This document shows, in pieces, positions 23,290-56,684 of a stretch of DNA of 64,000 nt. The stretch lies in the sequence record PZ151149.1. The stretch is one strand, 5' to 3'. The translations under genes were made by a program, and so were the position numbers. Under the pieces are notes generated by a model. The model did no database searches. It saw only the letters and a program-made list of their open reading frames with translations, and was not told where the DNA came from. How positions within the stretch are numbered: position 1 is the stretch's first letter; each line of letters opens with the position of its first letter. The DNA is from a phage.

Positions 23290-25190
23290 CAAAGCAAAAG
23301 ATTACACAAATTCCTGATATTTTTAATGCTGCTACATTCGATGAAATTAAAAGCGCATTAACAGACTGGATGAGAAACCAGGAAGAATTTAAAGATTTTG
23401 ATTTTAATGGTGCTGGTATTAACGTATTGATGGACTTGCTCGCATATAACACTCTGTATATTCAGCAATTCGCTAACGCCGCGCTATATGAATCTTTTAT
23501 CAGAACGGCAATTAAGCGTAGTTCAGTTGTTCAAGCCGCGCAAGATTTAGGATATTTGCCAGCGAGTAAAACTAGTGCATCAACTACTATTATGTTGCAC
23601 GTATCACATCCACGAAATCCGGCAAGTATTCGAATCCCACGAGGAACTAAATTTATTGCAAGTGTGGATCGCCAGACGTCTTACCCGTTTGTGACTACAG
23701 AAGACGTCGTGAGTGTTTTAGGTTCAAATGGTTTATATACGCCTATGCTTAAAGTCGCACAAGGTCGTATTGTTCGTACAGAAATGTTATTTGATCCGAA
23801 GAAACAAATTCTGATCCGCGATCCTGATATTGACCGCGCTCAGGTTAAGTTGTGGGTAGACGGTGCTGAATGGAAAGACTGGACACGAGAAAGTATTGTT
23901 AATGCAACTGGTGCAAGCAATATTTTCTATATGCGTGAAACCGTAGACGGTCATACAGAAATCTTCTTTGGTGAAGGTGAATCAACTTTATCTGCTGCTG
24001 GCGGTGCACTGGAAGCAAATTATATTGGTGGACTTAAGCCGTCAACTGGTGCTAATATTGTTATCGAATATATCAGCACTAAAGGCGCGGAAGCAAACGG
24101 TTCAGTTAATTTCACATACGCGGATACCCTTGCATCTATCTCTATTGTTACAATTATTGAGAATCCGACAAATGACCGTGATTATGTCGGTGCAGATGGT
24201 GGCGGTGATCCTGAATCAATCGAACGTATCCGTGAACTTGCTCCGGTAATGCGTGAATCTCAGCGTCGTTGTGTTACTGCTTCCGACTATGAGGCTTTTG
24301 TGTCTAGCCGTTTTGGTAGTATTGTTCAGGCGGTACAATGTTTCACCGACCGAGAAAAACCGGGTTATGCTTTTGTTGCTGTTAAGCCGAAATCTGGCTT
24401 GCGCTTGACAACTGTTCAAAAAGAAGATATGCGTGATTATCTGGCAAAATATAACCTTGCCCCTATCACACCGAGCATCATTGACCCCAGCTATCTGTAT
24501 ATTAAACAGAATATTAAAGTTTCCTATTCGATCAATGACTTATCAGAATCAGAGCAGTGGTTGCGCGGTGCGGTTATTGATCAGATTGACGCATATTATA
24601 CCGACGAAGTGGAAATTTTTAACCAGACCTTTAGTAAGTCTAAAATGCTTGCGCGTATTGACAAAGCTGATGTATCGGTGATAGGTTCTAGTGCAGAGAT
24701 CGAGATGGTGCGAGAGATCGACAACTTCTATAAAGCGCCTATGGCTGGAATCAAGTTTTTAAACCAGTATAAGAGCGGAATCAAGTCTAGTTCATTCAAC
24801 TTCGAAAAGGACGACAAGCAATATCCGATCCATTATGTAAGTACAGAAATGAACAAAGAATCCGGTTTAGCTAAATTGCTGGTTGGACCTTTCCCTGTTG
24901 GTTCTGTAATCGCTTTACCGCACTATTCCGGCACTGATTTTGATAAAGAGGTTATCGACGGTGCGGACCTATACTTTGAGGTTGGAGAGGTTCAGCATTA
25001 TGAAGACCTTATTTCATGGGATCTGGGTAAACTGAATATCAATAGCGATCGCTTTACTGGTTCATATATTGAGTTGACAGCTAAACCGATTGCTGATAAC
25101 ATCTTTACTAAAGACGGTTCTTTGATCGTGTTTGAAAACGATCTCCGTCCTCAGTACACAACTATTAGTCTGGAGGCAATTGCTCAATGA
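23286..25190 (+). CDS. 6: baseplate wedge subunit gp6
   Basis: 634 aa, position and size as T4 gp6. Confidence 0.85.
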
Positions 25191-28100
25191 TTAAAGCGCC
25201 TAGTGTAACTAGCTTGACAATAGAAAAATTGTCTGCTAATCAGGCGTATATCACATGGGATGACGTAGGTGAAAACTTCTTTTATTTTGTGGAGTTAGCC
25301 GAAACCAGAACACGAGACGGGGAGATCATCCCCGTCGATGAGTTAAGCTGGGTAAACCTGGGATATACTGCCGAACAAAACTGGTTTGAGGATAAAAACC
25401 TTTTTCCAGAATATTATTACAAGTTTCGTGTAGCAGTAGCCGCAGAAGGATTTGAACAAAGTAAATGGGTTGAGACAGAAGAGTTTCAGACATTTAAAAC
25501 AAACGCATATAATTTTTCTATGATGCGAGAGTTCAACCTTGCAAACGAGTTTATAAAGGAAAAATTTACATACGATAATCGAGAGTATGTCAAGTTTAAT
25601 ACCGACCTTATTCAAGCATCATTGATGAAGGAAGATTTTGTCTTTAGTCCTGAATATGCAAACATGACAAATATCTCAAACTACATTGTAGTTGATGAGA
25701 ACTTTCATGAAATACAGGACCACATAGAAAAAGTTTGTACCGATATAAACCGCACCATGTTAGCGGAAATGAACGGTGTTTTGTACCTTTTCGAAAGGTT
25801 TCAGCCGATCGTGAAAGTATCAAACGATAAAGGTCAATCATGGAAAGCATACAAGGCTTTTAATGACCGTGTAGGCAATCCGGTTTCCAGTACATGCGTT
25901 TATCAGTCTAAGACTACTACTTACGTTTTAGGTTATGACCGAATCTTTTACGGACGACAAGCGAGCGATACCCGATGGAGTGCGGACGATGTTCGATTTA
26001 GTGATGATACGATCACTTTTGCAAAGGTTGGTGACGAAAACGACTTAGGGTTTGATGTTGAGGTCTTTGGTGTATTTTCCAGATTAACAGGTGATACCAC
26101 AAAATACGCCGAAGCTATGGCGTGTAGTGACGATTATTTGTGGGTTGGTGCTAAAGATGTTATTCGCCGGATTCGTCTTAAGAATACTCCTGTTGATACC
26201 GTACAGGGTTCGCCTACGTTTGGAGAAAAAATATTCGATCCTGATGTTATCCGAGTAACAGGAAATGATAAAGCTGTCATTCAGAAAATGGATGTGATCG
26301 ACGGTAAATTGCTTGTATTTGTTACTGGTGAAGTTAAACAGCGTTATCAAGATCCAACTAAACCAGAAAACGTTGTTCCGTCAGATGATGCGGGTGTATA
26401 CTTAATCGAGAGTGATGGTCTGTCTTTTCAGAGAGTATTTGGCAACACTCCGCAGGAAAGGGAATATATTCAGCATGGGTTCAGTAATATGTCAACCAAT
26501 GGTGATGAGGTGTTCATAAGCCATTATAATCATCACTTCGAAAGCATTTTACCTGATCCAGAAACTGCCGCGAAATATGAATTAAGCGAAGCTGTAAAAT
26601 ATTCTCAGGAGCCAACTTATCTAACTGATAAGAAAATACATCAAACTACTTTCAGGGCAAGTTATGATGATTTGCGTATCTGGGAGTTAGGACCGCAAGC
26701 GTATTATAATGAGGCCGATTATACATGGATGCGTCGAAACGGTGTCCGTGTGTGGATCACAAATGATAATCGCCCGTTGGTTGTTTATCCAGAGGTTATC
26801 TATACTCAAGAAGTTGATACGTCTGGCATTCTTGACCAAAATAGGGTTAACCGAGAAGTTTATGATAAAGGGACCGTGACCTGTTATCTGAACAATGTTA
26901 AATTTGAAGGATTCAAACAATATGCATCCGGCGTAATGTTCCATAAAAACACGGGAGAGATCATAGGATTCTATCAATTTAATTACCGTGTTCGTGATCA
27001 AGTTGGTGTATATTGGAAGCCAACAAATGTAGCATTTGTTGCAGAACTGCAAAATCAGGTTCGGGAGGTTCCCTGGGTTCCGGTTCACTACGATCAAGAG
27101 CAAGTTCCAGATTTACGGCCTTTATTGAATAAAATGACGCCGGACAGCTTTTTGCTTGAAAATGAAAATTTCAGAAAATTCTCTGAATATTATCTGCAAT
27201 TCTTAAGTGATGGTTCAGGAACATATTATAATAAACTAAAAAATCTGATTAAAAACAAATACCCACGCGAGCAAGATGCATATGAGTATCTTTGGTCAGA
27301 GATGAACAAACGAAACATCTATGCAGATAAAAACAAGCGAGATGCGGTAGTAAGATTCTTTGAATCCCGCAAATCAGATTTTTATTCCACTAAGGGCGTG
27401 GAGGCTTCTTATAAGTTCTTGTTTAAGTTACTTTATAATGAAGATGTGGAAATTGAGGTTGAATCACAAGCCGGACTAGAGTATGATATTGTTGTTAGTT
27501 CAACGAACATTGACGAGGATATCGTAGGTCGCACTATTTATACTCCAACCGGACGGGCTAACGTGACGTATCTTGAAAGGGAATATGAAGGTGGTCGCCT
27601 ACGCTGGCGAGTAACCATTCATAACCTGATCGGGCGGTTTGAAGAAGGTCAAGTGATCAAATCAGAGAAAACAGCGTTTGAGGGGATGATCCTTGTTGGT
27701 GTACGTGGTAAAGAGTTGTTGAGTAGTTCAATCGACTATATCAACCGCTCACGAAGCCAATACACCATGAAGATTAAAAGTGCATTGCCAGTTTCTCGCT
27801 ATGCAAATGATGTAATGCGATTCGTTCATCCTGTCGGCTTTGGGTTTATCGGTGTTACCCTGCTTACGATGTTCATTAACAGCGGGTTAAGCATGAAACA
27901 CACAGAGACGATAATTCAATCTCTAAAAAATTATAAGTTTGACAGCGGATTGCCTAGCGTGTATCCTGATCGGGTGGCAGACCTTGACGTTGACGGAAAC
28001 ATTAAGAAAGACCCGCTTACCGGAAAAGCATTATATTTGACTTCACCTTTAATTGGTGAAGAATTTCCGGTTCCCCCTGAATATGATCAGGAGAACAGCG

Positions 28101-28273
28101 AATTGTTCCACGGACTTAAAGCAAGCGAACGAAGATTTGCAATGAGTCCACTGTTTGACCAGTCGGCGGTAACATTCTCTATGTTCCGTGAACTTGTAGA
28201 TAAACGGTTGAAGGATAATATAGGGAATCCACGCGATCCGAAGAATCCGACACAGAGGAAAATTAATGGCTAA
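25187..28273 (+). CDS. 7: baseplate wedge subunit gp7
   Basis: 1028 aa, position and size as T4 gp7. Confidence 0.85.
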   Translation: MIKAPSVTSLTIEKLSANQAYITWDDVGENFFYFVELAETRTRDGEIIPVDELSWVNLGYTAEQNWFEDKNLFPEYYYKFRVAVAAEGFEQSKWVETEEFQTFKTNAYNFSMMREFNLANEFIKEKFTYDNREYVKFNTDLIQASLMKEDFVFSPEYANMTNISNYIVVDENFHEIQDHIEKVCTDINRTMLAEMNGVLYLFERFQPIVKVSNDKGQSWKAYKAFNDRVGNPVSSTCVYQSKTTTYVLGYDRIFYGRQASDTRWSADDVRFSDDTITFAKVGDENDLGFDVEVFGVFSRLTGDTTKYAEAMACSDDYLWVGAKDVIRRIRLKNTPVDTVQGSPTFGEKIFDPDVIRVTGNDKAVIQKMDVIDGKLLVFVTGEVKQRYQDPTKPENVVPSDDAGVYLIESDGLSFQRVFGNTPQEREYIQHGFSNMSTNGDEVFISHYNHHFESILPDPETAAKYELSEAVKYSQEPTYLTDKKIHQTTFRASYDDLRIWELGPQAYYNEADYTWMRRNGVRVWITNDNRPLVVYPEVIYTQEVDTSGILDQNRVNREVYDKGTVTCYLNNVKFEGFKQYASGVMFHKNTGEIIGFYQFNYRVRDQVGVYWKPTNVAFVAELQNQVREVPWVPVHYDQEQVPDLRPLLNKMTPDSFLLENENFRKFSEYYLQFLSDGSGTYYNKLKNLIKNKYPREQDAYEYLWSEMNKRNIYADKNKRDAVVRFFESRKSDFYSTKGVEASYKFLFKLLYNEDVEIEVESQAGLEYDIVVSSTNIDEDIVGRTIYTPTGRANVTYLEREYEGGRLRWRVTIHNLIGRFEEGQVIKSEKTAFEGMILVGVRGKELLSSSIDYINRSRSQYTMKIKSALPVSRYANDVMRFVHPVGFGFIGVTLLTMFINSGLSMKHTETIIQSLKNYKFDSGLPSVYPDRVADLDVDGNIKKDPLTGKALYLTSPLIGEEFPVPPEYDQENSELFHGLKASERRFAMSPLFDQSAVTFSMFRELVDKRLKDNIGNPRDPKNPTQRKING

Positions 28274-29261
28274 TGAAAATAGTGTGATCTATCGCTCAAT
28301 CATTACTAGTAAATTCAGAACGGAAAAACTTCTGAATTTCTATAATTCTGTAGGCGATGGAGCAAATCAAATTACAATTTATGGAACGTTTGGACGTTCG
28401 GAGCCGTGGTCAGAAAACGAAAAAGAGGTGGGCTTTGCCCCACCTTATCCGACCGATTCAACGGCTGGCGTTGTTGATATGTGGACCCATATGATGGGTG
28501 CGGTTAAGATTAACAAATCACTTCTTGATGCGGTCATCCCCCGTAAAGATTGGGGTGATACCGGACAGGATAACCCGCGCACGTTCTTTATCAATGACAT
28601 TGTTGTTGTAAACTCAGCACCATATAACCGTACAGATGTTGGTAGCGGCTGGATGGTGTATCGCGTAACCGATGTTCCTGATCGCGGTTACTGCTCGATT
28701 TCAAGCATTGATGCTAAAGTAGAGTGTTTGAAGTTGGGCGGAAAGTGGACCCCAACTCATGAATCAATTGCGCCACCTGTAGGAAAGGGCGATTCTATTG
28801 ATATGGGTGATGGGTATCGTTGGGAATATCTGTACACAATTCCACCTGATGCGGCGATCAACCGTTGCACCAATGAACATATTGTTGTACCGTTCCCCGA
28901 TGAACTGCGACAAGATCCGGCGCGTTGGGGCTATGACAATGTGATCACCTGGTATAATGACTATAATCTGCTTTATCGGCTGAAAGTAGTAACTTTGCGT
29001 TTTCAGGCTTATATGGACTCTGCGCAATTCCCAACTACCGCGTTAGTGGGTAATACTGGTTTCCGTCAGTTAAGCATTATCCTTAACCCATTGGAAAAGA
29101 AAGCACGCCCTAGCGATCCAGACGTTAAAGCGGTTAACGATAAGTACCGACCGCAAGACTTAGAGCCACACTCAGGAGAAATGATCTACATGGAAAACCG
29201 ACAACCTATCGTTCGTTCACTGGATCAAACAGAACTTGTTTCTGTATTATTTGAGTTCTAA
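28266..29261 (+). CDS. 8: baseplate wedge subunit gp8
   Basis: 331 aa, position and size as T4 gp8. Confidence 0.8.
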   Translation: MANENSVIYRSIITSKFRTEKLLNFYNSVGDGANQITIYGTFGRSEPWSENEKEVGFAPPYPTDSTAGVVDMWTHMMGAVKINKSLLDAVIPRKDWGDTGQDNPRTFFINDIVVVNSAPYNRTDVGSGWMVYRVTDVPDRGYCSISSIDAKVECLKLGGKWTPTHESIAPPVGKGDSIDMGDGYRWEYLYTIPPDAAINRCTNEHIVVPFPDELRQDPARWGYDNVITWYNDYNLLYRLKVVTLRFQAYMDSAQFPTTALVGNTGFRQLSIILNPLEKKARPSDPDVKAVNDKYRPQDLEPHSGEMIYMENRQPIVRSLDQTELVSVLFEF

Positions 29262-29276
29262 GTATATGATTTTAAA

Positions 29277-29300
29277 GCCAATTCGTGAGAATTGGCTTTT
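29277..29300 (+). terminator. intrinsic terminator after gene 8
   Basis: GCCAATTC-GTGA-GAATTGGC hairpin followed by TTTTTCTATTTT. Confidence 0.55.
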
Positions 29301-29313
29301 TCTATTTTGGGTG

Positions 29314-29342
29314 TTGACAATCTTGTCTGGTGAGGTATAATG
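29314..29342 (+). promoter_or_regulatory. consensus sigma70 promoter (TTGACA-17-TATAAT)
   Basis: TTGACA at 29314..29319, TATAAT at 29337..29342, exact 17-nt spacer. Confidence 0.65.
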
Positions 29343-29370
29343 CTCACATCTAAACAACGGAGGATAAATT

Positions 29371-29628
29371 ATGGCACGTCGTAAATTTACAGATAATTGT
29401 GAAGCAATTCAGGTATCCCCTTGCGGTTGGGATGTGATTGCGAACGGTGAAAAGATCGGAGAGATCATCGATCATACTCATTCATCATTAGCTGATTACA
29501 CCGATGAACTGTGGGAAGGTATCAACTTCATGAATGACACTAAGCGATTCAAGACTATTGACGAAGCTATCTATTTTGTATACAATCCAACTTTCGGTAT
29601 GTGGAGTGATAGAAAATGGCACGCGTAA
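29371..29628 (+). CDS. hypothetical protein (first gene of inserted cassette)
   Basis: 85 aa ORF with ACGGAGGA RBS. Confidence 0.6.
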   Translation: MARRKFTDNCEAIQVSPCGWDVIANGEKIGEIIDHTHSSLADYTDELWEGINFMNDTKRFKTIDEAIYFVYNPTFGMWSDRKWHA

Positions 29629-29948
29629 ATATTAAATTGCATTACACAATGAATAAAGCTAAGTTCCCAATGCAAAAGCATTACTATGGTCTACGTGCAC
29701 AAGATCCTAAACTCTATGGTACTCATTGGTTTTGTAAACATGATAACCAATGGCACACATACGAAGAAATGCACGAGATGATGAAACAGGGTATTGAATT
29801 TAGTTATTCTAATTATGACCATCGTATAACTTGCATTCGAAAATTGAAACGATGGATTCGTAAGAATCCGCAATTTAAAAACTATGTGTTCTTTATGTCT
29901 CATACTTATCTGGGGCATAGCGTTACCGTAACAGCAAAGGTTAAATAA
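29616..29948 (+). CDS. hypothetical protein (Cys/His-containing)
   Basis: 110 aa ORF, overlaps neighbours at both ends. Confidence 0.6.
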   Translation: MARVNIKLHYTMNKAKFPMQKHYYGLRAQDPKLYGTHWFCKHDNQWHTYEEMHEMMKQGIEFSYSNYDHRITCIRKLKRWIRKNPQFKNYVFFMSHTYLGHSVTVTAKVK

Positions 29949-30787
29949 TGGCACGACTTTCTAAACAAGAACAAAAATTACACGACCGAGCAATGGAGTT
30001 GATTAATTCAGATCGTCCATTGACATTTGAAGAAAAAGAATTTTGCTATAATAACTATCATGGCGATGGGCTAGGTGGTTCCGGTGCATTCTTTACCCCA
30101 GAATGGCTTGCCTGGGATTTTACCATTGACGCACACTGCACAGGAAAAGTATTGGACCTTTGTGCTGGGATCGGTCGTTTATCTTTTTGTATGTTGCATC
30201 GTTGTAAGCCAGAAAAGATCGTATGCGTCGAACTCAATCCAGAATTTGCGCGGATTGGCAAGCGACTATTACCGGAGGCAGAATGGATCACCAGCGATGT
30301 ATTCGAATTTGAGTCAAACGAGAAATTCGATGTTGTAATTAGCAATCCACCTTTCGGGAAAATCAATACTACCAACACAAAGGATGTATTTGAATATACT
30401 GGCGGTGAGTTTGAATTTAAGGTTATGACGTTAGGCCAGAAGTTTGCCGATGTAGGTTACTTTATTGTTCCTTCTAGTTCCGCTGGTTTTGCCTATTCCG
30501 GCAGACCTTATTATGATGAATCAGTGAAGTCTAATAAATATCTAAAATGGAGCAAACAAACTGGTTTGGTGACTTATGCCGGATGTGGGATCGATACATC
30601 AGTCTATCGCGATGAATGGCATAATACCAACGTTTTAACAGAAGTGGTTGAGGTTCGGTATTACGAGAAAGAAGCCGTAGAAGCGCCTAAATCGCGTCCT
30701 AACGAACAAATAGAAGAAAGTAAGGAGATTACCTTACCGAAACAGGAAAGCGAGTCTGGGACGCTCTCAGATTTGTTTGACATTTAA
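29948..30787 (+). CDS. SAM-dependent N6-adenine DNA methyltransferase
   Basis: Motif I VLDLCAGIGRLS and motif IV ISNPPFGK. Confidence 0.75.
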   Translation: MARLSKQEQKLHDRAMELINSDRPLTFEEKEFCYNNYHGDGLGGSGAFFTPEWLAWDFTIDAHCTGKVLDLCAGIGRLSFCMLHRCKPEKIVCVELNPEFARIGKRLLPEAEWITSDVFEFESNEKFDVVISNPPFGKINTTNTKDVFEYTGGEFEFKVMTLGQKFADVGYFIVPSSSAGFAYSGRPYYDESVKSNKYLKWSKQTGLVTYAGCGIDTSVYRDEWHNTNVLTEVVEVRYYEKEAVEAPKSRPNEQIEESKEITLPKQESESGTLSDLFDI

Positions 30788-30791
30788 TTAT

Positions 30792-30817
30792 AAGCCGTCC
30801 TTGTGGGCGGCTTTTTT
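30792..30817 (+). terminator. intrinsic terminator
   Basis: AGCCGTCC-TTGT-GGGCGGCT hairpin plus T6. Confidence 0.55.
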
Positions 30818-30827
30818 GTATGTATTT

Positions 30828-30835
30828 TATAAATA
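30828..30835 (+). promoter_or_regulatory. T4-type late promoter (TATAAATA)
   Basis: TATAAATA about 27 nt upstream of gene 9 ATG. Confidence 0.55.
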
Positions 30836-30862
30836 ATACATCATAACATGAGGAATTAAACA

Positions 30863-31717
30863 ATGGCACAAGTTCCAAAGAAAAGAATAGACACAGGTAC
30901 GGTCGGCAATCCATCGACTGGCGATATCTTATATGATGGCGGTAATAAAATTAACGATAACTTTGATTCAATATATGACGCATTTGCTGATCAACGGTTT
31001 AAAGACGTAGACCACGGCGTAGGAAGAATGGTTATTCATGCAACCGGATACTATCAGAAGCATCCACGTCAAAGCTACTCGGGTTCCGCTGTTGAGATTG
31101 GGAGTCTACACGATATCGATACAACTCAAGGCGCACTTATTGCTATTCTACCTAAAGCAAAGGTCGGAGAGGGTGTTGTATTCATAAATAGTAACGGTAG
31201 CCTTTCAACGACGACACCGCTCAATATTCGAACTCAAGCAGGTGATTCTATTAGCGGTTATTCCGGTGATGCTACAATAACACAACCATTTTCAAAAGTC
31301 ACTGTTTGGTGTACTGCCGTTGAAGGTAGTCGCGTAACATGGCGATTGGGTATCGAAAGTATGTTTACCGATACAACAACGCCAGTAGATAAAACTGTTA
31401 ACGTAACTGGAGTAGCAACAAACGTTGCTATTGCCGCAAAAACAGAATATGTTTCCATCAAATTATTAACTACCGCTAGCAATACATCCGGTTCAAAAAT
31501 GCGTTCAAGTGAAACGCTACTGATGATTGATTCTAAAGCCGGAAAAGTTTATGCGACGGAATATGCAGTTTTGCAGAAGACAGAAGATGAACTATACACG
31601 GTTCGTTATTTCATCGGTTCCGGCGATAAAGTATATGCAGAGTATAAGGCTACTGGCGAAAATATTCGTTTAGCAGTTAAAGCCGTAGACACTATTAAAA
31701 TCGGGGTTGCTACATGA
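30863..31717 (+). CDS. 9: baseplate wedge / long tail fiber socket gp9
   Basis: N-terminus KKRIDTGTVGNPSTGDILYDGGNKINDNFD matches recalled T4 gp9. Confidence 0.9.
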   Translation: MAQVPKKRIDTGTVGNPSTGDILYDGGNKINDNFDSIYDAFADQRFKDVDHGVGRMVIHATGYYQKHPRQSYSGSAVEIGSLHDIDTTQGALIAILPKAKVGEGVVFINSNGSLSTTTPLNIRTQAGDSISGYSGDATITQPFSKVTVWCTAVEGSRVTWRLGIESMFTDTTTPVDKTVNVTGVATNVAIAAKTEYVSIKLLTTASNTSGSKMRSSETLLMIDSKAGKVYATEYAVLQKTEDELYTVRYFIGSGDKVYAEYKATGENIRLAVKAVDTIKIGVAT

Positions 31718-35577: not shown

Positions 35578-37346
35578 TGATCGAACAGTTAAACATTCGA
35601 AAGATCCCTAACGTCGATGGTGTCCCTGGAGAGGGACAGCATTCTATTAGCTGGATTAAAAATGGTGAATGTCTAAGCGCAGCAACCACAGAAACAGGAC
35701 ACGAGGGGACGCTTAACCGCGCCCCTTATGCTATTCAAGAAAATATTGTTCGTCTGGATGAAAATTCTAAGACAACGGTAACAAAAGTTAACGAAGTTGT
35801 TACCGCAGTTAATGATATTAAAACTACTTTAGGCGCGGTTTCTGATGGTAGTATTATTGATATTGTCAATCAAACTATTGCAAAGGTTGAGTCTGTAGAA
35901 GAAAATTTAGGAGAAACTTCAAGGACATTACAAACCACAGTAGATGAACTGGCGGAGACAGGAAAGAAAATTGGTGTTCGTCCGGCAGCAGATCCGAGTA
36001 CACGAACAATATATGATGATATTTCTTTCATCAAACAAGAATTGGGCGCTTTCCCTAACTTCAATATCAACGGTTATCCAGATCCAGGTAGTTCCGGTTC
36101 CGGTATCAAATATCGAGTTATCCAGAATACGGAAGCATTAAACAACCACGGTCAGCGAATCCTCCAACTAGAAAACGACTGGCAAGATTCTGACGTTGGA
36201 GAGCTAACAAAACAAGTTAACAAAATGCGAAGCGAGCTAGGCGATACATCACTAGCAACACAGGACAATGTTTATCTTCGTCTTCGCACAAATACTCGCA
36301 ATATCGCTAGTATATCAAACGAAGTTCAGGAAGTAAAGAAAGCGATTCTATTTGAATCAATTCCTGATATCGGGACTAAAGTAACTAAGCTACAATCTGA
36401 TTATACACAGCTTAATGATGAAGTCAACGGCGTTGACGCTGGTATCCGTCCTCGTTTAACTCTTCTGGAAAATACGATTGGCAGTCCTCAAGCCGCTGGA
36501 AGTATTGATTATCGATTGACTAATCAAGAACGGGAATTTGTAGATCTTAAATCTATTGTCGGTGTTAGTGGTGCTGATGGTCTACGTGGTGAGGTTGCAC
36601 GAATCTCTAACACAGTTGGTACTGATAGTGAGCGTCATACTATCGCAGGTCGTCTAAAAATTGTAGAAAACACACAGGGACGACTAGAAGCTAGCGTACA
36701 GGATATCGAGCAAATGATCGGCGATCGAGATTCCGGTCTAACCGCTGGGGTTATTAAGCTGTCAAGCGACATGTACGGCAATCCAGAAGGAAGCACGCAG
36801 CTTGAACAAGATGGGATCGTGAAAACTGTTAAGGAATTGAGCACATCAAATGCAAGCAAGGTAACAGACGTTCCTGATGATGGTTTCCATTATCTACGTA
36901 AGCACGGGGAATGGGTTCAGGTCGCATGGGCGGCTGGTGCATTTAAAAACACCGCTCAGATTGATATTACTCTCGACGGACAAGATCAATACAAAGGAAT
37001 CCCGCTAAACGATATGACCGAAGAAGTTCCTGCGCGTGGAATGGTTAAGAGCGAATCTCTTGTTACGGTTAACGACAAAGGCTTATTCCGTTGTGATTTC
37101 CGTTGTTCTGTAAATGCGGCACATAACGCTACTTTCGTAGTCGGTATTGCTAAAAATGGTCTGATTGTACATGAGGTACGAAATGGTCATTATGGACCTG
37201 ATGATTTAATTAGCTATTCTACCAGTGCTTTCCTAAATATTGAAAAGGGCGACCGGATCGATATTCGCATTAAGGGCGTATCCGAAGAAGCATTAGCGCA
37301 ACAGCTACAAATTAAAGAGTTCCTCTTTGGAATTTCTCCGGTATAA
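35577..37346 (+). CDS. wac: fibritin (whisker, wac) with additional C-terminal domain
   Basis: Coiled-coil body; foldon-like DVPDDGFHYLRKHGEWVQV followed by about 130 extra residues. Confidence 0.8.
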   Translation: MIEQLNIRKIPNVDGVPGEGQHSISWIKNGECLSAATTETGHEGTLNRAPYAIQENIVRLDENSKTTVTKVNEVVTAVNDIKTTLGAVSDGSIIDIVNQTIAKVESVEENLGETSRTLQTTVDELAETGKKIGVRPAADPSTRTIYDDISFIKQELGAFPNFNINGYPDPGSSGSGIKYRVIQNTEALNNHGQRILQLENDWQDSDVGELTKQVNKMRSELGDTSLATQDNVYLRLRTNTRNIASISNEVQEVKKAILFESIPDIGTKVTKLQSDYTQLNDEVNGVDAGIRPRLTLLENTIGSPQAAGSIDYRLTNQEREFVDLKSIVGVSGADGLRGEVARISNTVGTDSERHTIAGRLKIVENTQGRLEASVQDIEQMIGDRDSGLTAGVIKLSSDMYGNPEGSTQLEQDGIVKTVKELSTSNASKVTDVPDDGFHYLRKHGEWVQVAWAAGAFKNTAQIDITLDGQDQYKGIPLNDMTEEVPARGMVKSESLVTVNDKGLFRCDFRCSVNAAHNATFVVGIAKNGLIVHEVRNGHYGPDDLISYSTSAFLNIEKGDRIDIRIKGVSEEALAQQLQIKEFLFGISPV

Positions 37347-38362: not shown

Positions 38363-39103
38363 ATGTTTAACAACACTCTTTTTGCTCGCCTTGAATCGCA
38401 AAAGGATTATGAGAATACACGACAAACCGAGATTCTTAATCCTTACGTGAACTTTCACAAATATACAAATACTCAGACGTTAGCCGACGTTATGGTCGCC
38501 GAAGCTATTCAGATGCGAGGTGTAGAATTATATTACATCCCTCGTGAATTTGTCAAACCAGACATGATCTTTGGTGAGGATGTTCAGAGCAAATTTACTA
38601 AAGCATGGAAATTTGCGGCCTATATTAATTCATTTGATGGTTATGAAGGTGTTGGTAATTTCTTCTCTAGTTTCGGTTATCAAGCCAATGATGAACTAAC
38701 TTTTACGGTTAACCCCAACCTATTCAAGCATCAAGTAGATGGAAACGAGCCGAAAGCGGGTGATTTGATTTATATTCCTATGAGTAATGATTTATTTGAA
38801 ATCAATTACTTAGAGCCATATCAGCCGTTTTTTCAGGCTGGCAAAAATGCCATGCGTAAAATCATTGCAGAGAAATTCGTGTATAGCGGTGAGGAATTGC
38901 GACCAGAATTACAACGCAACGAGGGAATCAACGTTGATGAGTTCGCGGATCTGGATCTTGCACCGATCACTAATCTGGACGGGTTAACAGATATCAACTT
39001 AGATCAGTACAAAGAAGATAAGCAATTCAGAAGCGAAGGACAAGATTTTATTGACCCGTTTGATCCTATTAATGGCAAGGGTTCACCTTTCGCCGATTTT
39101 TGA
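38363..39103 (+). CDS. 14: neck protein gp14
   Basis: 246 aa, T4 order and size. Confidence 0.85.
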
Positions 39104-39129: not shown

Positions 39130-39963
39130 ATGTTCGGTTGGCACTATAATTCGTCAATTAGAAGGTATATTGTATTGCTGGGTAATTTATTCTCCGGCGT
39201 ACAAATTAAAAGGGTGCGTAGTGACGGTGAGCGTTATATTAAAGTTCCAATTACCTACGCAAAGAAAGAAAAATTCATGATGAGTCTGGACAAATATAAC
39301 AATATCTCCAGTGAGGAAGACGTAGCAAAGGTAGAAACTATTTTACCGCGCATGTGTCTTTCTTTGATTGATATGACATACGCCCAGAACTTTAAAACAA
39401 ATATTGCAAATAAGACAGTACCAAAATATACGGCTGATGGAATCAGGAGTGTGACACAATATAATCCTGTACCATATAAGTTTACTTTCGAGTTAGGGAT
39501 TTATACGCGTAACGAAGATGATATGTTTCAGATAATTGAACAGATTCTTCCTTACTTCCAGCCTCATTTTAACTGTAAGATTAAAGAACTACACGGTAAT
39601 GATGTATGGATTGATCGAGATATTCAGGTCACAATTAGTTCTATTACTCCAGATGAACAGGTAGGCGAAGATAAGTTTTCTCGTCGTCGTCTTGAGTGGA
39701 CCATTATGTTTGAGTTCATCGGGTTTATCTATCCTCCAGCTACCGACGTTAAGGGGGAAATTAGAACGATTTATCTTGATTTTCATGCCAATTCTCGTGA
39801 ATTGAATCCTAGCGGTAATTTTGAATCTGTGGATCACGAGGTCGTTAAACGTGACGTCGAGCAAGAAGAATGGGACGGAACTATCAAAGAATCATATTCT
39901 AGTGATATTCCAATACCAGTTGCACCGACTCCACCAGGTCCACGTATTGTAAGAGAATTTTAA
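39130..39963 (+). CDS. 15: tail sheath stabiliser/completion protein gp15
   Basis: Start at MFGWHYNSS (AAGGGGG RBS), as recalled for T4 gp15 N-terminus. Confidence 0.85.
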   Translation: MFGWHYNSSIRRYIVLLGNLFSGVQIKRVRSDGERYIKVPITYAKKEKFMMSLDKYNNISSEEDVAKVETILPRMCLSLIDMTYAQNFKTNIANKTVPKYTADGIRSVTQYNPVPYKFTFELGIYTRNEDDMFQIIEQILPYFQPHFNCKIKELHGNDVWIDRDIQVTISSITPDEQVGEDKFSRRRLEWTIMFEFIGFIYPPATDVKGEIRTIYLDFHANSRELNPSGNFESVDHEVVKRDVEQEEWDGTIKESYSSDIPIPVAPTPPGPRIVREF

Positions 39964-39976
39964 GAGGTAATTTATT

Positions 39977-42297
<2,321 letters not shown>

Positions 42298-52246: not shown

Positions 52247-52567
52247 CTAAATATCTAACCAAGACAAGTCAGATCCGCCCAAGATTTTTTCGACGGCGGA
52301 TCTATTTTCTTGATGATATAAGTTAAAACATGGTATCCCATGTCTACGGGCAACATAAACAGCAATTCTAGTTCCTCCCGAAACGATTCCATTAACTTCT
52401 TTCGCCCAAAATAACACACAATCTACAGGATCATCAAGTGTCTCACCTAAGACTTGAGCAACATTTCTAGAAAACAGATTTTGCATGTATAACGGTATAG
52501 AACGAGGATTATCATAAACGTGTTCTAATTCATCCATCGCCAGATTTTTTGTTCTAAGGTTTGCCAT
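52247..52567 (-). CDS. DprA/SLOG-like Rossmann-fold protein, C-terminal segment
   Basis: SRN...SGGTRIAVYVARRHGIPCF resembles the C-terminal DprA/Smf motifs. Confidence 0.55.
   Translation of the reverse strand: MANLRTKNLAMDELEHVYDNPRSIPLYMQNLFSRNVAQVLGETLDDPVDCVLFWAKEVNGIVSGGTRIAVYVARRHGIPCFNLYHQENRSAVEKILGGSDLSWLDI
52270..52304. terminator. hairpin between convergent genes (possible bidirectional terminator)
   Basis: AGATCCGCC...GGCGGATCT 9-bp stem with 15-nt loop, T-rich after. Confidence 0.4.
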
Positions 52568-52833
52568 GCAATAACATCATGACCGTTATGCTTGTGGTCA
52601 TAAAACTTCCAATTTGGAATGAAAATTTTTCTATAATCTGGATCGTAATACTTCATGAAAGCATTGTCCATACCGTAAGCCCCTCCAGAATGCGCTACAA
52701 CGCGATTTTCTGACAATACCCTCCCAATGGTACTAGCCATTATCAAAATGTCGCTAGGCGCTTTTCTAGAGCCTATTAAAGCACATCTACGAAGTGGTTT
52801 TACTCCAAATAGATCTTGTAACTGGTCAAACAT
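52525..52833 (-). CDS. DprA/SLOG-like Rossmann-fold protein, N-terminal segment
   Basis: ALIGSRKAP and VVAHSGGAYGMD resemble DprA GSR and SGxAxGxD motifs; GGAGG RBS. Confidence 0.55.
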   Translation of the reverse strand: MFDQLQDLFGVKPLRRCALIGSRKAPSDILIMASTIGRVLSENRVVAHSGGAYGMDNAFMKYYDPDYRKIFIPNWKFYDHKHNGHDVIAWQTLEQKIWRWMN

Positions 52834-53730: not shown

Positions 53731-54006
53731 TCAGGACATTGCCCGTTTGAATGCGTCCATTATAACAGTGTTATTTGGCTTGTCAACACGTTTTTGAACT
53801 TTATTTTTAAATTTTTTGTTGATGTGGTGTTTACGATAAACAACCTTTTCACGGCTGGCGTAAGCCTCGCGTGCATCTTTTACCATCAACCATGCCTTAG
53901 CCGCATCTTGTCCGCTGATCCCGCCAATCTTTTTAGCAATATCAACAAAATTAAGACCGTGGTCTTCGCGTAGCATGTAAACCATTAACGCTGTTTTCTT
54001 GTCCAT
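53731..54006 (-). CDS. putative helix-turn-helix DNA-binding protein
   Basis: Start at internal Met MDKK; HTH-like segment NFVDIAKKIGGISGQDAAKAW; ATGA overlap with upstream membrane gene. Confidence 0.45.
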   Translation of the reverse strand: MDKKTALMVYMLREDHGLNFVDIAKKIGGISGQDAAKAWLMVKDAREAYASREKVVYRKHHINKKFKNKVQKRVDKPNNTVIMDAFKRAMS

Positions 54007-54322: not shown

Positions 54323-54363
54323 GCGTGCCATTATAGGCATCTAAATAGCTCTGTCAAGCACTA
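54323..54363 (-). promoter_or_regulatory. sigma70-type promoter (TTGACA-17-TATAAT)
   Basis: -35 at 54353..54358 and -10 at 54330..54335 on minus strand. Confidence 0.5.
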
Positions 54364-55958: not shown

Positions 55959-56684
55959 TTACTTGAGTGTGTGGAATTGGCTATGTTTAGTCTCTCGCAC
56001 CTTGACAGACCCATCGCGTTTGATATAATAGATCAGTGACTTGAGGGTGTCGTGTACATACGCGTGCGGGAAACGCTCTGGATACTTCTTCCAATCTGGA
56101 GTATTAACGATCCAGTCGAAGATCCACCACGGGCAGGAGTAGTAACCACGACCGCCACCGATCAAGCAAATGGTCGGACGGAAGCCAGTAAGATCGCAAA
56201 ATGAATCAGTGTCATGTGCGGGGGGACGATGTTCTGCTTCGTCAGAGAAAATGTTTGCTACCGGAGATTCCACTTTAACTTCCGGTGCTTCTTCAACATC
56301 TGACTTAACTTCTTCAACCACTGGTTCAACTGTTGGAGATTCTTCTTTTGTTTCTTCAATGACGATCTCAGGTTCTTTCATTGCTTCAACCAGAGACGGG
56401 TCAACTTCGTCGAATACCACTTTATCATCTGCGGTGTCTGTTGCCAGAATAAGATCGTTAATACTGGTTCCTTCTGCCGGAGTTTCTTCTTCCATTTCGG
56501 AAGCCAGTTTAGTTAATTCGGTTTCTACGAACTCGATCATGTTCTCTAGTGATAAAGTCTTTTTGACCTTAATATCAAATTGTTTTGCGTAGTCCGCTAA
56601 TTCTGTTTTAGCTGTTTTCTGTGCTTCTTTGTCGTCGGACGCCGCAATAGCGCGGAGTTCTTCGAAATATTCTTTATCAAACAT
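55959..56684 (-). CDS. protein at T4 inh position (acidic middle, conserved-looking C-terminal domain)
   Basis: 241 aa between hoc and uvsW; positional assignment only. Confidence 0.4.
   Translation of the reverse strand: MFDKEYFEELRAIAASDDKEAQKTAKTELADYAKQFDIKVKKTLSLENMIEFVETELTKLASEMEEETPAEGTSINDLILATDTADDKVVFDEVDPSLVEAMKEPEIVIEETKEESPTVEPVVEEVKSDVEEAPEVKVESPVANIFSDEAEHRPPAHDTDSFCDLTGFRPTICLIGGGRGYYSCPWWIFDWIVNTPDWKKYPERFPHAYVHDTLKSLIYYIKRDGSVKVRETKHSQFHTLK

Follow-up and report, generated by a model that had tools for sequence, protein, structure and literature searches.

A predicted N6-adenine DNA methyltransferase with a DNA-polymerase-like C-terminal tail in an early-promoter cassette between genes 8 and 9 of Krischvirus

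The sequence record PZ151149.1 comprises a stretch of 64,000 nucleotides (the window), which belongs to Krischvirus, i.e. to the RB49/Phi1/JSE-like 'pseudo-T-even' coliphages. Between the genes for the baseplate proteins gp8 and gp9, at positions 29,277 to 30,817, it carries a cassette of three open reading frames (ORFs) behind a sigma-70 consensus promoter: two small ones, here called ORF-A and ORF-B, and a methyltransferase. We think it probable that this cassette supplies an early-made orphan N6-adenine DNA methyltransferase, which would be tethered to the gp45 sliding clamp through a C-terminal tail resembling that of the phage DNA polymerase and would methylate phage DNA during replication. 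The tail was absent from the initial annotation of this region and seems to us, on comparison of sequences, the most informative feature of the enzyme; its near-identity to the polymerase tail suggests that methylation is coupled to replication.

The methyltransferase of the window ends in ...ESGTLSDLFDI, and the gp43 DNA polymerase of Phi1 in ...KVASLTDLFDI. The last seven residues of 474 ORFs, from about 164 kb of this phage type, were scored against the polymerase tail; the methyltransferase was the best non-self match with a score of 31, where the mean was -7.2 and the standard deviation 6.9. The runners-up were DNA ligase (18) and gp33 (12), both of which are gp45 partners in T4 (PMC6212786, PMC2988020). 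The T4 gp43 C-terminus, EKASLDFLFG, is a gp45-binding epitope, and a crystal structure shows gp45 bound by the T4 ligase loop EPEGLDFLFD (PMC6212786). Among gp43, gp55 and gp33 one tail can stand in for another, and that of gp55 is carried on a divergent flexible linker (PMC2988020). Among 16 distinct Krischvirus methyltransferase sequences, 29 of 240 core sites and 13 of 32 linker sites (41%) vary, and none of the seven tail sites does. Such an invariant tail on a variable, disordered linker is the signature of a short linear motif on a spacer. Opposite the gp45-binding loop of T4 ligase, the aligned Krischvirus ligase has DGTLSWIFEEEE, and the Krischvirus trio thereby reads ASLTDLFDI in the polymerase, GTLSWIFEE in the ligase and GTLSDLFDI in the methyltransferase, beside the T4 version L-D-F-L-F. 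Judged from this alignment, the methyltransferase tail follows the Krischvirus version of the clamp motif. Another candidate for the clamp loop, the internal 'GLDDLF' of the Krischvirus ligase (residue 184), was ruled out, since it occupies a non-homologous position in the alignment with the T4-type ligase. The gp45 gene is not encoded in the 64-kb window.

Clamp-type tails recur in the wider family. Of 1.8 billion cluster representatives, a profile search retrieved 1,082 as relatives of the methyltransferase, and tail statistics were computed on the best 149 of these. The pattern Q[LFMIV]x[LMIF]F occurs within the last 12 residues of 21 of the 149 and in none of 37,245 internal windows of 12 residues taken from these proteins; a broader motif is found in 58 of the 149 against a background of 1.3%. 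Many of the 21 end exactly in QLSLF, QLTLF, QLALF or QLDLF, and QL(S/D)LF is the bacterial beta-clamp-binding motif, which is typically C-terminal (PMC9690074, PMC4549789). One homolog, ending QLDLFGEAA, is encoded immediately downstream of the lambda-type replication genes O and P, and another, ending QLSLFDAA, beside an integrase. In phages that encode gp45, the methyltransferase tails are polymerase-like, and the window enzyme, whose TLSDLF lacks the Q and has one extra residue, does not conform to the strict bacterial QL[SD]LF pentapeptide. From these comparisons the type of tail seems to fit the type of replisome. Both the polymerase-like clamp tail on a phage DNA methyltransferase and the recurring QLxLF tails in a family of about 1,000 members appear to be undescribed.

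The window holds one further clamp-like sequence, in a different gene. The counterpart of Phi1 ORF164 (195 residues) lies at 52247-52833 on the minus strand, split into overlapping ORFs of 102 and 106 residues, and its N-terminus, MFDQLQDLFGVKP, resembles a QLxLF-type clamp motif, in the N-terminal placement seen in Hda.

The initial annotation had recognized methyltransferase motifs I and IV in the third gene of the cassette, and profile searches and a structural model bear this out, pointing to a class-I methyltransferase with the motifs and fold of N6-adenine enzymes. The Pfam families MTS (38.7 bits) and Eco57I (27.2 bits, cut-off 25.3) score above their cut-offs, and N6_Mtase remains below its own (17.2 against 20.4 bits). 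PHROG 3820, to which the protein belongs, is named 'DNA methyltransferase'; the PADLOC model mad2 matches at 2e-17, and type II DNA methyltransferase models align from residue 45/46, at an FFTP motif. The AlphaFold2 (AF2) model has a predicted local distance difference test (pLDDT) score of 85 and a predicted template-modelling score of 0.81, with residues 1-240 confident and 251-273 disordered. Motif I and a motif IV of the form (N/D)PP(F/Y) are placed on a class-I Rossmann fold, and the order X-I-IV is that set for gamma-class N6-adenine DNA methyltransferases, if GAFFTP is, as we assume, the motif X (FxTP) of these enzymes. GAFFTP, LDLCAGIG and NPPFG are invariant among 32 homologs. The longest structural alignments, covering 207-216 residues, are to the putative methyltransferase lmo1582 (2f8l) and to type I HsdM DNA methyltransferases.

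Several observations weigh against a clamp-tethered DNA enzyme. The last eight codons, stop included, of the polymerase and methyltransferase genes are identical at 19 of 24 nucleotides, and because of this the methyltransferase tail could be a recombinational copy rather than a convergent motif. The tail is missing from the homologs of Aeromonas CC2 and Sinorhizobium phiM19 and from the copies of about 238 residues that lie at the margins of prophages or islands in Citrobacter, Salmonella, Klebsiella and further enterobacteria and that end with the catalytic core; T4-type phage copies add a low-complexity linker and a conserved C-terminal peptide beyond it. With so many tail-less homologs, the enzyme can evidently do without tethering. 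Six RB43-like genomes, namely RB43, KP27, Phynn and three metagenomic contigs, have the homolog between the gp41 helicase and gp61 primase genes, and its tail there, LFTF[TR]IE, is only loosely like the cognate polymerase tail, SLNDLFGDW or SLSDLFDF. As to the substrate, the closest structural neighbours include the RNA N6-methyladenosine (m6A) enzymes METTL5, PH1948 and Erm/KsgA, and because of them the fold alone does not settle whether DNA or RNA is modified. No separate target-recognition domain is obvious in the 240-residue core, and the ORF list of the window contains no specificity-subunit gene near the methyltransferase; residues 140-238 and the N-terminal helices might serve for target recognition. 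Finally, this phage type already has a separate Dam methylase (Phi1 39544-40356, 270 residues).

Part of these observations would suit an ordinary, untethered orphan DNA methyltransferase, expressed as an early anti-restriction gene, whose tail makes no clamp contact and is a by-product of recombination or has some other function, in stability or as a degron for instance. Many members of the family do without a tail, the identity to the 3' end of gene 43 fits a copied segment, and RB43-clade tails differ from those of the cognate polymerases. We nevertheless regard this explanation as unlikely: the tail has stayed invariant while the linker before it varies at 41% of its sites, C-terminal QLxLF motifs recur in distant representatives and are absent from the background, and the tail matches the ligase clamp loop as well as the polymerase. 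A strict co-variation of methyltransferase and polymerase tails was also looked for in the RB43-like clade and was rejected, the six genome pairs sharing only a loose xF[DT]F / DLF core.

The RNA enzymes among the structural neighbours raise the question of a different substrate, namely that the protein methylates RNA (rRNA or tRNA m6A, as METTL5) or protein (release-factor glutamine, as PrmC) and reprograms host translation early in infection. This we consider very unlikely. All NCBIfam matches are far below cut-off, with PrmC at 37 of the 199 bits required; the longest structural alignments lead to lmo1582 and HsdM; Pfam Eco57I is above threshold; the PADLOC DNA methyltransferase models align from FFTP onwards; and clamp-type tails, like a replication-gene neighbourhood, would be sensible only for a DNA enzyme. 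The name PrmC/HemK release-factor glutamine methyltransferase, used in several GenBank records, is unsupported, as the protein reaches neither the equivalog cut-off nor a closest fold of that type. We therefore retain the prediction of an N6-adenine methyltransferase and infer from sequence that its substrate is DNA.

A contact between tail and clamp could also be regulatory, with methylation of secondary importance. The tail would then compete with gp43, gp33 or gp55 for gp45 and thereby set the timing of late transcription, or it would occupy the host beta clamp and help to shut off host replication. Such a role would draw on the double nature of gp45, which is both processivity factor and late-transcription activator and whose partner tails are interchangeable (PMC2988020), and on the location of a gene that is predicted to be made early within the late-gene region. 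The invariance of the catalytic motifs in the family argues, to the contrary, that enzymatic activity is under selection; nothing points to inhibition, and TLSDLF falls outside the strict beta-clamp pentapeptide. A purely regulatory tail is in our view highly improbable.

If the methyltransferase is indeed tethered to gp45, host RNA polymerase would transcribe the cassette immediately after infection; the tail of the enzyme would dock on gp45 clamps loaded on phage DNA at or behind the replication forks; and adenines in the nascent DNA would be methylated as it is produced. The outcome would be prompt protection from restriction or another methylation-sensitive attack on a phage whose cytosine is unmodified. 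Tethering fits the early promoter, because the enzyme would be needed when replication starts, and it fits other lineages, in which the gene lies beside those for replication. The distribution of the methyltransferase gene agrees as well: 289 phage records match it at E<=1e-5, and a search with gp8 gave 1,478 T4-type records, most of which therefore lack it. Of the 289, the 59 with more than 60% identity are all Escherichia, Enterobacteria, Shigella or Krischvirus records. The anti-restriction role proposed for the cassette in the initial annotation would be in keeping with this scheme, and we infer it from the scheme.

A bolder view, which we think quite unlikely, is that clamp-coupled methylation is a replication-dependent self-mark in a T4-type phage without hydroxymethylcytosine. 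Since gp45 would be placed on DNA by the phage clamp loader during replication, DNA replicated by the phage would be marked in preference to host DNA, and methylation would replace hydroxymethylcytosine both as a shield against restriction and as the cue by which DenA-type phage nucleases spare phage DNA. Were this true, the beta-clamp motifs in prophage homologs would imply a general and unrecognised prokaryotic counterpart of DNMT1-PCNA. On the chemistry of the genus, the Krischvirus TB34 is reported to have canonical cytosines, as opposed to the 99.96%-identical phage SAP, which has glucosylated cytosine modifications and no identifiable pathway for them (PMC13390438, 2026); our searches turned up neither a Krischvirus methylome nor evidence linking this difference to the cassette.

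Confirmation of the tethered enzyme would decide between the conflicting database names (DNA methyltransferase, RNA methylase, PrmC), with DNA as the substrate; it would place a methyltransferase among the clamp-borne enzymes; and it would give phages with unmodified cytosine a simple mechanism for methylating their DNA fast enough to escape restriction. It would also draw attention to an overlooked methyltransferase in two Klebsiella phages, KP15 and KP27. The genome paper on these two phages sought the cause of an 'unknown DNA modification' and reported Dam and Dcm only, with no other methyltransferases (PMC5219037). KP27_035 (L014 20001-20777), a protein of 258 residues that ends in DLFTFTIE, belongs to the family. 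In the six RB43-like genomes, a gene of 114-130 residues abuts or overlaps the start of the methyltransferase gene (L012 19673-20065; L032 9682-10038; L033 6986-7330; L034 6834-7205), and it is possible that this gene, which is unrelated to ORF-A and ORF-B, is the true partner of the methyltransferase in that clade. In the three metagenomic RB43-like contigs it carries Pfam DUF8046.

The interval between gp8 and gp9 has a compact organization (Table 1). The terminators that the initial annotation had placed on both sides of the cassette are present. The one behind gp8, annotated by ARNOLD at the corresponding site in phage G2494, sits 14 nucleotides upstream of the -35 element, and a Shine-Dalgarno sequence lies between the promoter and ORF-A. 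The three ORFs overlap at their stop and start codons, and for this reason their translation is probably coupled. ATGGCACG (Met-Ala-Arg) begins ORF-A, ORF-B and the methyltransferase, and the related ATGGCACA (Met-Ala-Gln) begins gp9 (starts 29371, 29616, 29948 and 30863), which may reflect a common translation-initiation context. Both cassette terminators, and their counterparts in the divergent relatives L020 and L023, have the common form (A)AGCC-N-GGCTTTTT, and the terminator behind gp8 in L020 and L023 keeps it as AAGCC...GGCTTTTT; these short identical arms could be recombination points for gain and loss of the cassette. An Rfam scan of 27-33 kb on both strands gave no match, and GC content carries no foreign signature (0.36-0.42 in the cassette, 0.37-0.48 in the flanks).

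Table 1. Features of the gp8-gp9 interval and of the methyltransferase it encodes (positions in the window).
Feature	Position	Strand	Remarks
gp7	25187-28273		Upstream neighbour of gp8
gp8, baseplate wedge subunit; left flank, late gene	28266..29261	+	331-residue ORF; 99.7% identity to Phi1 gp8; annotated gp8
Intrinsic terminator behind gp8; putative stem-loop part of a PeSL-type element (promoter-early stem-loop)	29274..29299	+	11-bp stem, 4-nt loop, T-run
Sigma-70 consensus promoter, predicted early	29314..29341	+	TTGACA 29314-29319, 16-nt spacer, TATAAT 29336-29341; 12/12 match
ORF-A (Phi1 ORF140, phrog_16603)	29371..29628	+	85 residues
ORF-B (Phi1 ORF142, phrog_12630)	29616..29948	+	110 residues
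Predicted orphan N6-adenine (gamma-class-like) methyltransferase (Phi1 ORF143, phrog_3820)	29948..30787	+	279 residues
Motif X-like GAFFTP, residues 46-51	30083..30100	+	N-terminal to motif I; invariant in 32/32 aligned homologs
Motif I VLDLCAGIGRLS, S-adenosylmethionine binding (predicted), residues 68-79	30149..30184	+	C72, A73, G74, I75, G76 invariant
Motif IV NPPF, catalytic (predicted), residues 133-136	30344..30355	+	N133, P134, P135, F136, G137 invariant
Disordered acidic/polar linker, residues 241-272	30668..30763	+	pLDDT <50 for residues 251-273
C-terminal LSDLFDI, putative gp45 sliding-clamp-binding motif	30764..30784	+	6/7 identical to Phi1 gp43 end LTDLFDI
Intrinsic terminator at cassette end	30792..30813	+	9-bp stem, 6 GC pairs, T-run; annotated in G2494; kept in L020 and L023
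Late promoter TATAAATA, predicted to restart late transcription for gp9	30828..30835	+	Same position in L020 and L023
gp9, baseplate wedge tail-fibre connector; right flank, late gene	30863..31717	+	284-residue ORF; annotated gp9; followed by gp10 and gp11

The perfect sigma-70 promoter that the initial annotation had described stands with all 12 hexamer positions (TTGACA/TATAAT); its spacer is of 16 rather than 17 nucleotides, and it ends at 29341 rather than 29342. By our own calculation, about 0.02 such 12/12 sites would be expected by chance in 64 kb. The window contains five perfect sites and 16 sites with at least 11 of 12 matches, and because of this number the cassette promoter is, on its sequence, best placed in a genome-wide family of strong early promoters; a looser consensus scan of the window gave no enrichment (14 found, 13.5 expected). 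It had been called early rather than late in type, and by analogy this seems correct, as it is of the same type as the strong early promoters of Phi1/RB49 (PMC2839356, PMC1524935). The late promoter ahead of gp9 was recognized by the T4-type late consensus (PMC1524935). Other perfect or 11/12 sigma-70 sites lie in or beside the late region, at 36400-36427, 38527-38556, 53759-53786 and 54330-54357 on the minus strand and at 56002-56029 on the plus strand; the gp8/gp9 cassette is therefore probably not the sole early unit embedded among late genes.

The cassette is well established in the genus. Region 28266-31717 has matches of 90-99% nucleotide identity in 59 phage records; 58 of these cover it completely, and all 58 contain the three-gene unit; it is fixed in Krischvirus and is not a recent or undescribed acquisition. 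Nolan et al. (2006) listed RB49ORF143w as 'Methyltransferase small domain' (PMC1524935). Elsewhere gp8 and gp9 are adjacent, separated by gaps of 9-63 nucleotides in T4, in Aeromonas Tulanevirus, in Klebsiella phage Roth41 and in Acinetobacter Acj9. Synteny thus agrees with the earlier statement that the cassette interrupts two otherwise neighbouring late genes, and because the pair is so closely spaced in four other T4-type genera, we read the cassette as a lineage-specific insertion. Neither a cassette uniformly transcribed late in related phages nor a protein without methyltransferase activity and fold, which the initial annotation had named as outcomes that would speak against it, is in our judgement what the data indicate.

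The three-gene composition described in the initial annotation holds throughout the full-length Krischvirus records and is not obligate beyond them. Metagenomic relatives with a gp8 identity of 80-88% keep the frame of terminator, TTGACA promoter, methyltransferase, terminator, TATAAATA and gp9. At the position of the cassette promoter, L020 has TTGACA, a 16-nucleotide spacer and TATAAT, and L023 has TTGACA...GATACT. L020-L022 have no small ORF before the methyltransferase, and L023 has a single unrelated ORF of 154 residues. The reverse arrangement occurs in rV5-like Vequintavirus phages, which have ORF-A and ORF-B homologs without any methyltransferase. Because the divergent relatives keep promoter, methyltransferase and terminator while the small ORFs are absent or different, the methyltransferase is the constant cargo of the cassette, and ORF-A and ORF-B its exchangeable passengers.

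The two passengers of 85 and 110 residues had been described as having no assignable function, and this description stands: Pfam, NCBIfam and PADLOC gave no match, and database searches with either protein returned near-identical orphans only. ORF-A is confined to Krischvirus and three rV5-like phage records. ORF-B occurs in Krischvirus as two alleles, which share about 98% and about 70% of their amino acids with the window copy; the divergent one is found in RB49, Whisky and MIZ4, although their flanks are 95-97% identical, as if the allele had been replaced locally within the cassette. Residues C40, H42, H47, H69, C73 and H96 of ORF-B are invariant, a hint of metal binding. Its AF2 model reaches a pLDDT of only 64, and Foldseek found no match to that model at E<1. 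Homologs of ORF-A and ORF-B with 59-69% identity (about 59% for ORF-B) are present (L018 4001-4330) in the rV5-like Vequintavirus coliphages, which are myoviruses of an unrelated group: FV3 has ORF-A, FFH2 has ORF-B, and HMD-6 has both, adjacent and in the same order. They lie in a region of small early genes without a methyltransferase, and this sharing points to gene exchange between unrelated myovirus groups. In BLASTP comparisons, neither protein was similar to the genes that adjoin the methyltransferase elsewhere (DUF8046/RB43 ORF031, the 154-residue ORF of L023 and a 105-residue ORF of a Salmonella prophage).

As a genetic element, the cassette is known biology. Arbiol et al. (2010) defined promoter-early stem-loops (PeSLs) in Phi1/RB49 as a sigma-70 consensus promoter with an adjacent terminator stem-loop, of which there are about 50 per genome; in reporter assays they are very strong promoters and efficient terminators, the three PeSLs assayed not including the cassette copy (PMC2839356). 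A few are embedded in virion modules, with genes of unknown function as neighbours, and 'upstream of the -35' is one of the five stem-loop subclasses (PMC2839356). Nolan et al. (2006) had placed novel ORFs behind predicted early promoters and had found the RB49 early consensus in agreement with mapped transcript 5' ends (PMC1524935). The cassette fits the PeSL definition, with its 12/12 promoter, its adjacent stem-loop and its intergenic location between the gp8 stop and the orphan ORF-A, and it shares with PeSLs the genus, the stem-loop upstream of the -35 and genes of unknown function downstream. Unlike PeSL-bounded units, it is closed on the right by a terminator and a late promoter rather than by a second PeSL, and it is fixed, not variable between Phi1 and RB49. 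Neither the cassette copy nor ORF140, ORF142 or ORF143 is mentioned in PMC2839356.

Among adenine methyltransferases, the cassette enzyme is much smaller than the gamma-class N6-adenine DNA enzymes M.TaqI, type I HsdM, the Eco57I family and CamA, to which it has only 13-20% identity, and it shows no obvious separate target-recognition domain and no specificity-subunit gene nearby. Like the T4 GATC adenine methyltransferase Dam, it is a phage-encoded orphan adenine methyltransferase by prediction; the Krischvirus Dam, however, ends without a clamp-type tail, and the cassette enzyme is a second, unrelated one. The closest parallels to the tail itself are the gp45 partners, i.e. the tails of gp43, gp33 and gp55 and the ligase loop. 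Like them, the methyltransferase has a short hydrophobic and acidic peptide, here at its extreme C-terminus on a divergent flexible linker, and this putative clamp peptide is almost the same as the tail of the cognate polymerase and resembles the ligase loop. It differs from the known partners in kind, as no methyltransferase was found among them in the literature searched.

A functional parallel is offered by DNMT1-PCNA, in which a clamp motif brings a DNA methyltransferase to DNA that has just been replicated (PMC9690074), as we propose by analogy for the phage enzyme. The clamp review names no bacterial counterpart in this functional class (PMC9690074), and our own searches of the literature brought up no methyltransferase of a prokaryote or phage with a link to a sliding clamp. 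DNMT1 is large, modifies cytosine at C5 and has its PCNA-interacting peptide (PIP) box in an internal position, whereas the phage protein is predicted to be an adenine-N6 enzyme of 279 residues with a terminal motif of phage type, so that the two systems would be analogous, not homologous.

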